From the IMG/VR virus record IMGVR_UViG_3300032277_000027, positions 1 through 38,441 of that record: 38,441 nt of DNA; one strand, given 5' to 3'. The notes under the pieces are model-generated. The model worked only from the letters and a program-made list of their open reading frames with translations, did not search any database and had not been told where the DNA came from. The position numbers and the translations under genes are program-made. This stretch comes from a virus. Taxonomy: Duplodnaviria; Caudoviricetes. Shown in pieces: positions 3,992 through 8,737 of the stretch (position 1 is its first letter; each line of letters opens with the position of its first letter).

Positions 3992-4190
3992 ATCTAAAAT
4001 ACCCGTAATGACCTGCAACAGTATCAAACCCATCAGCAGATCTATGTTTATAAGTTAGCTTTTGTTCTTTTCTGATTTGAGCTAAGGAGCAGCATAAAAT
4101 ATTAGCCTTGCCATAAAATGTGGCGTAGCAAATTTGATAACCGTCGAATGTAGCTGGCTTTCCGTTAATTGTGTGCATGTACTTACTCAT
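3984..4190 (-). CDS. Hypothetical protein
   Basis: ORF with GGAGG RBS, in an operon. Confidence 0.75.
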   Translation of the reverse strand: MSKYMHTINGKPATFDGYQICYATFYGKANILCCSLAQIRKEQKLTYKHRSADGFDTVAGHYGYFRYE

Positions 4191-4191
4191 A

Positions 4192-4374
4192 TCACCTCCA
4201 AAACACTCTATAAAGTTCTACAGCCTCATATACAGCTAAACATATAAGGGCTATAGCTATGAACCAGGCTATTAGATTATTCATCATTATAGCTATCTCT
4301 CTCTTCTGCCTCTCTATCCGTCCTTTCCTCGTATTCTTCCTCTGTCTCTTCTTCGTCAGGTACATCAGAATCAC
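4192..4374 (-). CDS. Small membrane protein (start uncertain)
   Basis: Basic N-terminus and one hydrophobic helix. Confidence 0.45.
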   Translation of the reverse strand: MILMYLTKKRQRKNTRKGRIERQKREIAIMMNNLIAWFIAIALICLAVYEAVELYRVFWR

Positions 4375-4410
4375 GGTTAATAGAGTTATAATCCATACTT
4401 ATATAGTTAC

Positions 4411-5175
4411 TCATTTTCTTGAATCCTCTTTATTAGAATCTGTATGGCAAAATATGCCGCATTCAAAATCTAGGTTTTTCATCGGTCTGCCAGTTGCATT
4501 AATAGGCAATTCATCTAAAAATAAACGCTTACCCTTAACCCTAACTAATCTCGCTCCTATTCTCCTACTTTGTTCTGCTCTCTCGTCAAAGATAACGGGG
4601 TGCATTTTCCTTACATGGTTCCAATAAGTAGGGCTTGTCGCCTTTACGCACCCGATGCAGTTAGCGTTTGGGTAGCCCATCTTATAAATGTTAGGAAATT
4701 CTATTCCTGCTTCAGTTAATATATTAAAACAATCACCCTTAGATAGACCATGCTCAATTAATACAGGTAAAGTGTTTATTCTTTCATGCTCTTGGAAGTT
4801 ACAAAATCGGCTCTCTTCTCCTTTTGTAAATCCTAATACATGCCAATCAATTTCGTTATCCATTTCAAACTGCTGCCTTGCTACCTTCTTTAATTCAATA
4901 GTGCAGGGCGCACCGTTAGGTGCTGACATAAATGAACGTTTATCCCAAACATCTACAGCAGAGCAAGAAGGGTATTTACTGTTTGTTGCTGTTTCAATCT
5001 TTACACCTAACCATTTTTCAACATCATGTAAAAACCTTATATTGTCTTTGTCCTCTTCTTTAACTGGATTGTTTACTATTCTTACATTGCAGTTATGGCT
5101 GTATTGTTCAATTGTCTTTTTAGATGCCACCGCACTGGCAGCACCACATGAGAACCAAACAACTATTGTTTTCAT
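4411..5175 (-). CDS. PAPS reductase family / adenine-nucleotide alpha-hydrolase domain protein
   Basis: VVWFSCGAASAV PP-loop-like start, APCTIELKK, LGFT..E..R, GYPNANCIGCVK and ECGIFC cysteine motifs. Confidence 0.8.
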   Translation of the reverse strand: MKTIVVWFSCGAASAVASKKTIEQYSHNCNVRIVNNPVKEEDKDNIRFLHDVEKWLGVKIETATNSKYPSCSAVDVWDKRSFMSAPNGAPCTIELKKVARQQFEMDNEIDWHVLGFTKGEESRFCNFQEHERINTLPVLIEHGLSKGDCFNILTEAGIEFPNIYKMGYPNANCIGCVKATSPTYWNHVRKMHPVIFDERAEQSRRIGARLVRVKGKRLFLDELPINATGRPMKNLDFECGIFCHTDSNKEDSRK

Positions 5176-5390
5176 TTAATCACCCATTCATTTTTGTTAA
5201 TATGATTAGACTCATACTGCCTGGCCATTCTTAAAAAGCCCGTATCGTCTCTAAACTGAAATACTGCGCCTGTACCATCTATAGCTTTCATATAGACCTC
5301 AGCATCATATTCCTTACCCTTAGTAATATCCCTTCCATCTGATTTAGGTATAACGGTTATTCTTTGTCCTATTTCCATAGTGTTCTCCAT
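5172..5390 (-). CDS. Hypothetical protein (first gene of the leftward early operon)
   Basis: ORF overlapping the start of the next gene. The start may be the ATG at 5378 after GGAG. Confidence 0.7.
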   Translation of the reverse strand: MENTMEIGQRITVIPKSDGRDITKGKEYDAEVYMKAIDGTGAVFQFRDDTGFLRMARQYESNHINKNEWVIK

Positions 5391-5519
5391 TAATTGAGTA
5401 TTAATGATAATGAAGTTAATCAGATATATCTAATGAGTAATCTTTATAGGGTATAAGGAGATTTGATTATGAATGTAATTGGAGAGTTATATACTAGTGG
5501 TTAACTATAGGAGAAAACA

Positions 5520-5792
5520 ATGTGCAACTGTAAATCAATGTGCTGGATACCTGATCAAATGACAGATAATGGTCGCTGGCCCATGCCAGATCATCACCCT
5601 ATTTGTGAAGACTTTAAGCAAAACAGATATATAAGGCTATTTGACGACGAAGGGAATAGCTTTATTGATTTTCCTGAAAAAATGTATGAATTTATGTCTA
5701 GCATGGAATTTAAAGAAGGGAATTTCAAACAGGAAGATGTTTATTTAACAACAGATCAATTCAATAAGCTTGACGAGCATACTGGATTTTAA
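5520..5792 (+). CDS. Hypothetical protein (first gene of the rightward early operon)
   Basis: AGGAG RBS, divergent from the gene ending at 5390. Confidence 0.8.
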   Translation: MCNCKSMCWIPDQMTDNGRWPMPDHHPICEDFKQNRYIRLFDDEGNSFIDFPEKMYEFMSSMEFKEGNFKQEDVYLTTDQFNKLDEHTGF

Positions 5793-5909
5793 AACATAAG
5801 CGAGCCTTGATTGACCCGCCCATGCAAGGAACATATTTCTATACACCTATTTAGCTAGGTTAAGTATAGCACTATACGCCTTATTTGACATTTATAATTA
5901 TAACACAAT

Positions 5910-6024
5910 AAAAAAGGATTGAACATTGCTGAACAATCCTTTAATATTTACTAATCTGTAACGCATTGGTAGTGCTTGCAGAGAATCAGTACATGTGATA
6001 CGTATTCTTGCTTCAACAGATTTT
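5910..6024 (-). ncRNA. Putative small RNA (three-way junction plus terminator)
   Basis: TAGACT-18 bp-TAAAAT promoter at 6059-6030, AATCTGT/ACAGATT closing stem, two internal hairpins, AAAGGATTG/CAATCCTTT terminator with U6. Confidence 0.6.
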
Positions 6025-6097
6025 CCCGTATTTTACATTACTTGTTCTCTTTAAGTCTACTGCGTTGCTAAATTTTAATTAATTTTGGAGTATTACT

Positions 6098-6283
6098 GTG
6101 GACGATTATAGAATTTTGCAATTCGGAGAAACAATCAAGCATGGGGATGAAATAGATTCTTGCCGTGATGGATGGAGAGACAATCAAAAATGGGAGCCTG
6201 CGCCTGAGCATATGATTGGCAAAAAGGCTTCTGACCCAGCATACCCATCACATAGCAAATATAGACGCAAGCTAACCAAGTAG
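6098..6283 (+). CDS. Hypothetical protein
   Basis: GGAG RBS and GTG start. YRILQFGETIKHGDE...YRRK resembles a small phage protein family. Confidence 0.75.
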   Translation: MDDYRILQFGETIKHGDEIDSCRDGWRDNQKWEPAPEHMIGKKASDPAYPSHSKYRRKLTK

Positions 6284-6301
6284 TTAGTTAATAACTAACT
6301 A
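6281..6301. repeat. 21-bp palindrome TAGTTAGTTA-A-TAACTAACTA; second copy at 6474-6494
   Basis: Perfect inverted repeat. A near-identical copy flanks the other end of ORF 6312..6476. Confidence 0.8.
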
Positions 6302-6311
6302 GGAGAATACT

Positions 6312-6476
6312 GTGGATTTAGACTTAAATATTTACATCAAAGATCATAGAGGGCGTCAGATAGTTCATTACACCTTTACAGATGAGGATTTACTTGAATG
6401 GGCAAAAGCTTATATCAAAGATCAATATATGGATACTGAGTGTGAATTGGTATCTGTTACCTTAGTAAAGCCGTAG
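6312..6476 (+). CDS. Hypothetical protein, 54 aa (MDLDLNIYIKDHRGRQIVHY...), absent from the ORF track
   Basis: AGGAG RBS, GTG start, TAG stop. Confidence 0.7.
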   Translation: MDLDLNIYIKDHRGRQIVHYTFTDEDLLEWAKAYIKDQYMDTECELVSVTLVKP

Positions 6477-6524
6477 CTAGTTATTAACTAACTGGTACAA
6501 CAAATAATTAATTGGAGATTTACT

Positions 6525-6842
6525 ATGACTAACGAATTAACCACAACACAAAAACTAAATAATCTTGTTGATGCACTTGCAGAAGACGCAGATGAAAGCC
6601 CGTTTACTCAGGAAGAGTGGGATAGGATTGATAAGGAAAATGTAAAGCTTACCTTTCAAAACAATGAATTACATAAAAAACTTGAATATATACTTGGTTT
6701 CGCGTCTGAAATATATGCAGTTGAGCTATTGCAATACCATAACAAAAATTGGCTACAAGATGGGACAGAGCCAGCAAGATTAAGTGAATCAATACAGGAA
6801 AAGTTAGAAATAATCATCAGTACCATTAAAAGAATTAAGTAA
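6525..6842 (+). CDS. Hypothetical protein
   Basis: GGAG RBS. Confidence 0.75.
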   Translation: MTNELTTTQKLNNLVDALAEDADESPFTQEEWDRIDKENVKLTFQNNELHKKLEYILGFASEIYAVELLQYHNKNWLQDGTEPARLSESIQEKLEIIISTIKRIK

Positions 6843-7090
6843 CCCGTGATAACTGGCACGGGTAACCAACAGCACCAGGATAAAAATGCGTGAATAGAAA
6901 ACAAATTTTAGTTTGTACCTGTTTAGTAGGCGCAGGAATAGTATTTTAAACACTCGTTAACGGACATGGTTAGGGGCTTCAGTCAGCATCCAAGGATTGG
7001 TAAAGGCTTGAGTGATAAGTACAGACTAATAAACATAACAGTTAATGATTAGCTGATATTGATACTAGGTGTCCAAAGGCCTACTTAATG
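6842..7090 (+). ncRNA. Putative large structured RNA with multiple pseudoknots
   Basis: Intergenic region with an 11-bp closing stem, several hairpins and three loop-to-3'-tail complementarities (see findings). Confidence 0.65.
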
Positions 7091-7150
7091 TCACCTATTG
7101 TCTGAATATATAGTTATAAGCTTACTTAATAGGTCATAAAGACAAGTGAT

Positions 7151-7178
7151 TAGACAGGTGTATTGATAGGTTTAGAAT
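7151..7178 (+). promoter_or_regulatory. Putative sigma70 promoter
   Basis: TAGACA-16 bp-TAGAAT upstream of ORF 7206. Confidence 0.55.
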
Positions 7179-7205
7179 GTAATCTAACAATAGAGAGGAA
7201 TAAGC

Positions 7206-7409
7206 ATGGAAATACATACAGAAGAAACAAAGAAAACGTTTATTAATGACGAGCTTGAAAATGGATATACGATTGGCATAGTTGTCGATCACATGGATAA
7301 AGACGCACCTTTTGAATTTGATATTGATATAGCTGATTTTGGATGGACTAGCAAAGCCGATGTATTAAAGATCAAGAAAATGATCAATAAAGCTTTGTCT
7401 ATTTTATAA
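7206..7409 (+). CDS. Hypothetical protein
   Basis: GAGG RBS. Confidence 0.75.
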   Translation: MEIHTEETKKTFINDELENGYTIGIVVDHMDKDAPFEFDIDIADFGWTSKADVLKIKKMINKALSIL

Positions 7410-7432
7410 CCCCAATAACCGGATAGATAACA

Positions 7433-7747
7433 ATGAAAGCTGAAGAGTTTAATAAATTAATGGCAGAGCTGGAAGGAATAGATGTTAGTGAATGCAAGTT
7501 AATCGAAGGCTCGCTTCATCACGACACAAAACATTTTTATTATGTTTATAACTGGTATGAAGACTTAAACCTTCTAATGCCTTTAGCCTGGAAGTATGGG
7601 ATTTATGTCACTGAAATGTGTGGGGAATTTACAGGCCATTATTACCCAGTAAATGTTAAGAAAAGATATACATCAAAAGATAAAGACCCAATACAAGCCA
7701 TTAGAGACTGTTTAACAGCAATAGCAAAGGATAAAGATTATGAGTGA
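7433..7747 (+). CDS. Phage ABA-sandwich / DUF2591 (NinX-like) protein
   Basis: FNKLMAELEG...WYEDLNLLMPLAWKYGI...DPIQAIRDCL pattern. Confidence 0.6.
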   Translation: MKAEEFNKLMAELEGIDVSECKLIEGSLHHDTKHFYYVYNWYEDLNLLMPLAWKYGIYVTEMCGEFTGHYYPVNVKKRYTSKDKDPIQAIRDCLTAIAKDKDYE

Positions 7748-8006
7748 TGTTACCTGCCCATATTGCGGAGCAGCACAAGAAATAAATCATGATGATGGCT
7801 ATGGTTACGAAGAAGACATTGATCATGAACAAGATTGTACTGAGTGTTCCAAGACGTTTAAATTCACAACTAGTATCAGCTTTAATTATGAGGCTATTTG
7901 TCAAGATGGTGATCATGATATGCAGCCTTTCGGTGAAAAGTGGACTGATATGTATGCGTGTAAAAACTGCAATTACTGCGAAAAAAGAATAGCAAAGGAT
8001 AAGTGA
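7740..8006 (+). CDS. Zinc-ribbon protein
   Basis: CPYC, CTEC and CKNC motifs. N-terminal half resembles ORF 1063..1248. Confidence 0.75.
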   Translation: MSDVTCPYCGAAQEINHDDGYGYEEDIDHEQDCTECSKTFKFTTSISFNYEAICQDGDHDMQPFGEKWTDMYACKNCNYCEKRIAKDK

Positions 8007-8221
8007 TGGATAAAGCAGAAGCATTAAAAGCATTACAGCATGGCAAAAAACTTACACATCGTTGGTTTACTAGTGAAGAATGGATTGAATCAGTCGACGG
8101 TAGAGCAAGCACTTACAGGTTTGAAGACGGCTGTATTTGTAATGATGCAGAGTTTTGGAAGTTCCGTAGTGATGAAAGCTGGGACAATGGATGGAGTATT
8201 TTTAATGAAACTGTACTGTAA
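8003..8221 (+). CDS. Hypothetical protein, weakly DUF2829/Tad2-like
   Basis: AEALKALQHGKKL.H.W N-terminus and GWSIF C-terminus. Confidence 0.6.
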   Translation: MMDKAEALKALQHGKKLTHRWFTSEEWIESVDGRASTYRFEDGCICNDAEFWKFRSDESWDNGWSIFNETVL

Positions 8222-8330
8222 AGTTTACTGTAAATCAGTCCCCTATATAGCTGCTATCCTGGCACTAGGTTTATGTTGGTTGTTATTTAAAGGGTTTGTT
8301 CAGCCGTATTATTTATGGGTTATTGGGTAA
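8205..8330 (+). CDS. Small membrane protein
   Basis: MKLYCKVY...AAILALGLCWLLF with a GGAG RBS. Start revised from 8040. Confidence 0.55.
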   Translation: MKLYCKVYCKSVPYIAAILALGLCWLLFKGFVQPYYLWVIG

Positions 8331-8335
8331 TTACA

Positions 8336-8737
8336 ATGAATGAAAAAAATATGATAGCCATGCTAGAAAATGATCTAGCTTGTACTAGAGACAAGAATCA
8401 TTTCTTAACGCTAGAGTCTGCGAGGTTAGAACACCAGTTAATAAATTTAAAGGAAACGGTTAATGATTTTGCGTTATCTCTCTCTATGGCAGGCAAAGAG
8501 ATTGATAGGTTAGGTGGTGAAGGCAAGTACTATCGTCAGAAAGGATTTAATTATATAGAGAATATAACGACAAACCCAATGAATAATATGAAAATATTAT
8601 GCTTTTTTGGCTCTCATAAATACCAGTTAACTTACTATGCAAATAGACATGGGATGGCTTTTGGGTACAAATGTACATCATGTGGTAAGTGGGATGCAGG
8701 CACTCTTAAATGCGCTAAGGACAAACCAGATGAATAA
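8336..8737 (+). CDS. Hypothetical protein (coiled coil plus C-terminal LCFFGSHKY..CTSC zinc-binding module)
   Basis: ORF track with start revised. The C-terminal module resembles DUF1660-type proteins. Confidence 0.6.
   Translation: MNEKNMIAMLENDLACTRDKNHFLTLESARLEHQLINLKETVNDFALSLSMAGKEIDRLGGEGKYYRQKGFNYIENITTNPMNNMKILCFFGSHKYQLTYYANRHGMAFGYKCTSCGKWDAGTLKCAKDKPDE

Follow-up and report, generated by a model that had tools for sequence, protein, structure and literature searches.

The window analysed here, a stretch of 38,441 nt, corresponds to a complete phage record (38.4 kb) whose ends carry direct terminal repeats. Portal, terminase, capsid and lysis genes are accompanied by early genes of lambdoid type, namely NinB, NinG, SSB and a Rad52/22-family recombinase. 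The few named relatives of the SSB come from gammaproteobacterial or pseudomonadotal assemblies, and the nearest relatives of the NinG protein belong to Vibrio and Pseudoalteromonas phages; these affinities point to a marine gammaproteobacterium as the likely host. The element of interest occupies a 363-nt gap between two small plus-strand open reading frames (6525-6842 and 7206-7409). No reverse transcriptase or nuclease that might partner it, as in retrons, DRT systems or IscB-type ncRNAs, was named among the 60 window proteins or 24 neighbours, and ARAGORN predicted no tRNA or tmRNA gene in the window.

A metagenome scan returned five loci carrying the element: the window's own contig and the loci designated L090, L092, L089 and L093. 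The core is 94% identical to the window in L090, 96% in L092 and 85% in L093, and only part of it is present in L089. A further locus, L226, was found by scanning for the downstream linker. It lies in G051, a mosaic sister phage in which no match to the window's capsid protein was found, and carries a different insert of 218 nt between flanks 93-95% identical to window positions 6834-6905 and 7096-7178. The L226 core is 53% identical to that of the window and 53-56% identical to the other types; its global alignment score exceeds those of 1000/1000 shuffles against L093 and of 997/1000 against the window, and the tail motifs TGAT, TAGGT.TCC and TATTGTCT are retained. To judge from these sequence comparisons, the L226 element is a distant homologue of the window RNA. 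A covariance model scores it at only 13.8 bits (E 0.15), below a chance match elsewhere (15.2 bits), and for this reason its helices were assigned by hand. Only three divergent sequence types are available, from few assemblies, L090 and L093 sharing one and L089 and L092 another.

The first-pass annotation had placed the element at 6842-7090; the homologues shift its core to 6906-7104. Similarity extends over 6898-7108 in L093 and 6906-7106 in L092, and in both homology stops directly after TATTGTCT. A contig from run X5 has in common with the window only 6867-7103, with three differences, and a 22-nt linker, being unlike it at both ends, and in contigs from runs X1 and X2 position 6905 is joined to 7116 through other sequence. 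Core length ranges from 199 to 216 nt across the types. A coding frame was rejected, since all six frames are closed in three versions, with 3-11 stop codons per frame.

All helices of the first-pass annotation (P1-P4, P6 and PK1-PK3) were located in the sequence (Table 1). Its P1 of 11 bp (6908-6918/7019-7029) includes one U-G pair, with C6918 common to P1 and P2; PK1, PK2 and PK3 comprise 7, 6 and 7 bp, as described, and the imperfect pairs, read on the plus strand, are indeed all G-U. A better model of the P5 arm bulges G7006 and caps the arm with a tip hairpin (6990-6992/6998-7000). A single nucleotide, G7068, separates PK1 from PK2, and TGAT, TAGG and TATTGTCT stand out as short invariant unpaired motifs.

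Table 1. Parts of the structured RNA and of its immediate flanks (window coordinates)
Feature	Position	Strand	Remarks
Core structured RNA, non-coding	6906..7104	+	~200 nt
P1, closing the multibranch domain	6908-6917/7020-7029	+	paired changes in L093 and L226
P2 hairpin; its 9-nt loop L2 supplies PK3	6918..6936	+	invariant in 4/4 close homologues
PK3, loop 6925-6931 with tail 7079-7085	6925..7085	+	covarying across three types
PK1, junction 6939-6945 with tail 7061-7067	6939..7067	+	lineage-restricted
P3, closing the P4/P5 subdomain	6951..7014	+	invariant in 4/4 close homologues
P4, weak hairpin; its loop L4 supplies PK2	6957..6973	+	two one-sided changes
PK2, loop 6962-6967 with tail 7069-7074	6962..7074	+	covarying in L226
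P5 arm, tip hairpin and GGA-containing loop (6993-6997)	6974..7009	+	GGA in the loop in 3/3 types
P6 hairpin	7039..7055	+	paired changes in L090 and L092
Alternative tail self-hairpin, 9 + 5 bp	7054..7093	+	excludes PK1 and PK3
3' motif TATTGTCT	7097..7104	+	invariant in 5/5 aligned tails
5' leader/linker, outside the core	6834..6905	+	earlier-noted hairpin and TGG/CCA stem; 93% identical in L226
3' linker ending in a sigma-70-like promoter	7096..7178	+	95% identical in L226

Across the four close homologues the described structure is 98.8% paired, as against 28-44% for slid controls. Four pairs are changed on both sides, two in P1 and two in P6, the revised P5 adds a fifth, and one-sided changes in paired columns yield G-U, which fits a plus-strand RNA. 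The covariation score was reached by 2/500 shuffles, a count that is not to be taken as a probability, the sequences being few and related; with three divergent types from few assemblies, the underlying events are likewise few. Considered by helix, P1 in L093 has two pairs changed on both sides and one on one side, and its L226 equivalent is an A-U-rich stem of 12 bp in which five of the ten compared pairs are changed on both sides, according to a hand alignment. Two of the five P2 pairs are changed on both sides in L226 and one on one side, and P3 has a probable, hand-assigned equivalent of 4 bp there. The two one-sided changes in P4 give G-U or U-G. In P5, C6990-G7000 becomes U-A in L093, the neighbouring pair is unpaired in three of the four close homologues, and the tip comprises 5 bp in L226. 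P6 carries its two double-sided changes, and one one-sided change, in L090 and L092.

Covariation of the long-range pairs among homologues, set beforehand by the first-pass annotation as the test of its model, was observed for two of the three tail pairings. PK3 reads AGTAGGC/GCCTACT in the window and GAGAGGC/GCCTCTC in L093, where it can be extended to 9 bp, and AGACC/GGTCT in L226, where two G-C pairs are flipped and two pairs at the flanks no longer form. PK2 passes from GGACAT/GTGTCC in the window to GGATAC/GTATCC in L226, one pair being changed on both sides and one U-G becoming C-G; in L093 it is 5 bp long. These changes support a compact plus-strand RNA with long-range tail pairings, and of the three consecutive pseudoknots originally described PK2 and PK3 stand. 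PK1 does not stand in the same way. Its TAG/CTA is invariant in all four close homologues, T7063 is deleted in two of them, L090 and L093 retain 3-4 invariant pairs with a bulged extension, no pair is changed on both sides, and in L226 the helix is absent, the junction consisting of four A's that leave no room for it. Other long-range helices can be drawn in L226, between the P5 loop and CCTGAT (6 bp) and between the last junction and TATTGTC, so the lineages may differ in which knots they form and still agree in how many.

The nested free energy of the element is unremarkable (z = -0.73), as expected if the pseudoknots carry the fold. A descriptor derived from the window and requiring P1, P2, PK2 and PK3 together matches the window stretch and none of 3000 dinucleotide shuffles of that stretch. 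It also matches L226, an independent test since the descriptor was derived from the window, and again none of 3000 L226 shuffles. On both strands of 352 kb of AT-rich phage DNA it gave five matches, three of them true and the other two a single, probably chance, site counted twice. L093, with its 5-bp PK2, is missed by the descriptor. A looser version was rejected as a search tool, as it fires often and unspecifically in GC-rich DNA. A match to the stricter descriptor on the minus strand of G051 (L277, scan position 1960) is probably due to chance. Taken together, these data make it very likely that the element is a conserved RNA structure, and it appears to represent a real, previously undescribed family of structured phage RNAs.

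The distribution of this family is narrow within the collections searched. Blastn with the window, L093 and L226 versions gave no full-length match in 50,697 phage records, and plasmids contained no match. Of the pattern scans of IMG/VR, two gave chance matches only and one gave none; a scan over 22 of the 64 parts returned only L144, on the same contig as L093, and a further one nine loci, two true (L093 and L226) and seven due to chance. Six loci matched the window-type pattern in GTDB, none homologous, in a scan that divergent copies would escape because the pattern is not kept in L226. The tail pattern matched 19 times in 401 genomes of the class of G052, not more than in the reversed control, and no match had the topology. 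The element was likewise not found in records sharing the window's capsid protein (0/50 with model R1, none in 795 kb with R2, 0/41 further), searches which would probably miss types as divergent as L226, or in the early regions of three cultured Vibrio and Pseudoalteromonas phages. Two Vibrio phages contain unannotated gaps of 400-470 nt adjoining lysis-region genes (L299 5723-6124 and L300 4537-5003), without a match to the RNA or the descriptor.

In all contexts the RNA lies on the sense strand, close to where a rightward early operon begins. In L093 no other element separates it from the divergent control region, and a ribbon-helix-helix gene and a hairpin precede it. Two GACATGGG boxes lie 5' of the RNA there (2783-2800 and 2831-2846), the first within an inverted repeat overlapping TTGACA; they are possible operators of the nearby ribbon-helix-helix protein. 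The gene 3' of the RNA is different in each of the five contexts, with no function in common, and a start codon follows at most ~35 nt past the RNA in L092 and L093. In L226 the RNA is followed by a 153-aa open reading frame (4057-4518) whose product has a hydrophobic N-terminus and matches nothing in Pfam. G051 also encodes tRNA-Pro and tRNA-Leu (L278, 16392-16550) on the opposite strand, in a divergent control region ~600 bp from the RNA. PAPS-reductase-family genes occupy one slot in two of the phages (window 4411-5175 and L090 1187-1930), without a blastn match between them. No protein common to the window, G051 and the L093 contig was found in the DNA compared; three of the contigs are fragments, and a shared partner gene could lie outside them.

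The 5' hairpin that the first-pass annotation included in the element (6842-6863) is perfect, and the CTGG of its loop (6853-6856) is complementary, as noted there, to CCAG at 6875-6878. It is present in the window and L226, lacks its 5' arm in L089 and L090, and is lost with the whole leader in L093; missing in three of the five contexts readable upstream, it belongs to the linker, not to the core. The TGG/CCA pairing occurs more often than the hairpin whose loop suggested it, being possible in all four leader-bearing contexts and 5 bp long in L090 and L226. At the other end, the promoter-like TAGACA-16-TAGAAT (7151-7178) is the best match of the region, at 10/12, with site counts that do not exceed those of shuffles; it is kept in L090 and absent in L092 and L093, and a sigma-70-like site separates the RNA from the next gene in three of five contexts. 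A sigma-54 promoter at a TGGCAC motif was rejected for lack of the -12 element.

Short intergenic linkers of the window (6280-6307, 6473-6500, 7165-7214, 7401-7460 and 7702-7734) are met again in contigs of sister phages, where the small genes beside them are different, and one of them is a near-palindrome present twice. They look like recombination joints for cassette shuffling. Contigs from runs X2 and X6 hold other inserts in the slot of the RNA, with joints or loose ends before window 7114-7116; these may be more RNA types or small genes. The core is far more diverged than its flanks, which suggests old alleles exchanged by recombination at the linkers, and the small genes of the region appear to be exchanged likewise. 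With differing neighbours and no shared partner protein found, the RNA thus resembles a swappable gene cassette more than a leader belonging to one gene.

The tail offers a second conformation, in which it pairs with itself (7054-7062/7085-7093 and 7066-7070/7079-7083). In the window this hairpin has a free energy of -11.8 kcal/mol, and 0.5-0.7% of shuffles are as stable; in L093 and L226 it keeps the same register and is no better than shuffles (30% and 43%, respectively). Its formation would be incompatible with PK1 and PK3, and four of the PK2 bases would lie in its loop. The summed stacking of PK1-3 exceeds that of the tail hairpin, before loop costs, and the docked state is therefore predicted to be the more likely ground state.

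Gene-like mobility, together with the lack of both a fixed downstream gene and a phage partner, suggests that the RNA acts in trans on a host factor. The reading favoured here, tentatively and as a whole, takes window 6906-7104 as a non-coding cassette that mosaic marine phages exchange; its RNA is likely transcribed early and is predicted to dock its 3' tail on two loops, giving a stable particle that likely acts in trans on such a factor. The RNA would be transcribed within the rightward early operon, P1 would close the domain, and the tail would pair with L4 (PK2) and L2 (PK3), with a lineage-variable third helix in addition. PK3 would stack on P2 as an H-type pseudoknot with a crossing loop of 2 nt, the usual geometry of such knots. 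PK2 leaves a single nucleotide 3' of itself in L4, so that P4 probably must fray or the pairing be intermolecular. Docking would leave the 3' end buried, 3'-5' exonucleases would stall, and the RNA would outlive its mRNA. It may then work like the neighbouring small early accessory genes, as a decoy or scaffold for host proteins in takeover or counter-defence. Neither a second copy of the tail target pair nor an above-chance antisense match occurs in the window's genome. Points against the trans-acting reading include the ability of the tail to fold on itself and, in L092 and L093, a start codon lying as near as would be expected behind a cis element. A bolder extension, rather unlikely in its entirety, would make this 200-nt RNA "gene" in an early-operon accessory slot a new class of phage RNA effector. 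Its tail would reach across two or three loops, either those of its own molecule or, by swapping, those of others in a ring or cage, and would toggle against its own hairpin; its sequence types, passed between phages, would have diversified as if competing in an arms race against some host factor.

Several other explanations have to be weighed against a trans-acting cassette RNA. That the element is a two-state cis element of the nascent early transcript, either an antiterminator resembling put or a tail switch controlling read-through or translation, is unlikely, in spite of the constant sense orientation near the operon start, the position directly past the control region in L093, the lack of a named N- or Q-like protein among the 60 window proteins, the start codons close behind the RNA in L092 and L093, and a tail hairpin that holds its register in three types and pairs the invariant TAGG. 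That hairpin is not distinguishable from shuffles in L093 and L226, no terminator-like site occurs within window 5200-8400, neither state covers a ribosome-binding site, a promoter-like site lies 3' of the RNA in three of five contexts, and the downstream genes have no function in common. The riboswitch-like action suggested by the first-pass annotation is disfavoured because the downstream gene differs in 5/5 contexts; a check for an expression platform found the alternative tail hairpin, with no terminator called. An oligomer made of RNA only, in which the tail docks on L2 and L4 of the next molecule to build rings or cages like those of manA, EGFOA, ROOL and GOLLD, would be compatible with trans action and is quite unlikely. 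The strained geometry of L4 speaks for it, and precedents exist: manA RNAs of less than 200 nt assemble via kissing loops into 8- to 60-mers, and strand exchange yields a dimer in one EGFOA variant (bioRxiv 10.64898/2026.07.01.735769), and a GOLLD pairing found by covariation proved intermolecular (PMC12286853). The tRNA genes near the G051 copy would also fit, although no tRNA lies near the RNA in the window or the other contexts scanned, no match in sequence or topology to these four families was found, and the short linkers make intramolecular docking plausible.

Compact multi-pseudoknot cores typify ribozymes, and short invariant unpaired motifs are present here; a new ribozyme of self-cleaving or processing type, cutting the early transcript, is nevertheless improbable for an element that matches no Rfam ribozyme, exceeds the known small nucleolytic ribozymes in size and differs greatly in junction lengths between the window and L226. 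In C4/CI-type immunity an excised structured domain pairs through its loops with sites of the nascent transcript in trans, and here, too, two loops pair with two adjacent tail sites, both of which differ between types, and P1 joins the ends of a 122-nt domain, so that the compensatory changes could mark specificity types. An antisense RNA of this kind is nevertheless very improbable, with no Rfam C4 match and no antirepressor-type operon named downstream among the window proteins. The two tail strands are not repeated exactly anywhere else in the window, G051 or the L093 contig, where only scattered one-mismatch sites occur. A decoy for CsrA/RsmA acting through GGA loops, which the GGA in the P5 tip loop of 3/3 types might suggest, is a still fainter prospect: CsrB-type RNAs have many loops and little tertiary fold, whereas a search for CsrB/RsmZ-type features found one conserved GGA loop only, each core holds 2-6 GGA, near the chance level, and those outside the P5 tip loop are paired or not conserved. 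Finally, chance complementarity or an element acting at the DNA level would accord with the ordinary nested folding energy, but is hardly credible beside the compensatory changes in P1, P2, P6, PK2 and PK3, the one-strand G-U bias and the shuffle controls.

The first-pass annotation could assign the RNA to no family, and this is borne out: Rfam 15 gave no window hit at the gathering threshold, a best E of 2.7 locally around the element and no hit for L090, L092, L093 or L226. The manA model (RF01745) yielded nothing at E<=10 in the window's genome and recovered two of three cyanophages (~182 bits) as a positive control. The literature searched, with supplementary candidate lists outside its scope, holds no description of this RNA. 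To our knowledge, large ornate RNAs of bacteria and phages are rare, and most of those known (GOLLD, ROOL, manA and raiA) are without a known function. The short length of the present element makes it accessible to direct synthesis, probing and cryo-EM, and its three divergent natural types, with reciprocal loop and tail sequences, are ready controls for intramolecular versus intermolecular pairing. Should it act in trans, the phage proteins of early takeover or counter-defence would have an RNA counterpart; should it act in cis, it would represent an antiterminator or switch of a new kind that needs no protein.

Among known systems, HK022 put is similar in belonging to the early operon of a lambdoid-type phage and in needing no phage protein. 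It is ~70 nt long and consists of two hairpins directly behind the promoter, whereas the window element is three times longer and pseudoknotted, and it lies up to four small genes further downstream. P1 C4 and P4 CI likewise carry structured domains whose loops are complementary to sites in their own transcript; the window RNA differs in having no Rfam hit, one target set and no antirepressor operon in view. ROOL and GOLLD are, like it, ornate phage-borne RNAs with several pseudoknots, without a known protein partner and sometimes near tRNAs. ROOL contains three pseudoknots and averages ~580 nt (PMC5737381), and GOLLD often exceeds 800 nt (PMC12286853), roughly three to four times the 200 nt here; neither model hits the window RNA, and tRNAs lie nearby in only one of the contexts scanned. 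RaiA is of similar size, and one of its strands pairs with a junction and then with a hairpin loop, with a single nucleotide between (PMC12968392); in raiA this strand is the internal P5-P6 linker, and the 5' end is paired with the 3' end in P1, whereas the corresponding strand of the window RNA is its 3' tail. RaiA occurs in Firmicutes and Actinobacteria, and the element has no Rfam hit to it. The likeness to manA lies in a length of ~190-200 nt, occurrence in marine phages, a multibranch fold with loop pairings and an unassigned function, and manA is described as forming cages of RNA only (bioRxiv 10.64898/2026.07.01.735769). The manA consensus structure is closed by a stem of 5 bp between the near-5' and 3' ends, with many hairpins inside it, whereas in the window RNA a free tail of 75 nt outside P1 would dock back on the loops. 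The window RNA resembles an orphan ornate phage RNA standing outside every family tested. Its predicted topology, in which the 3' tail clamps the closed multibranch domain, has no parallel among the families compared.
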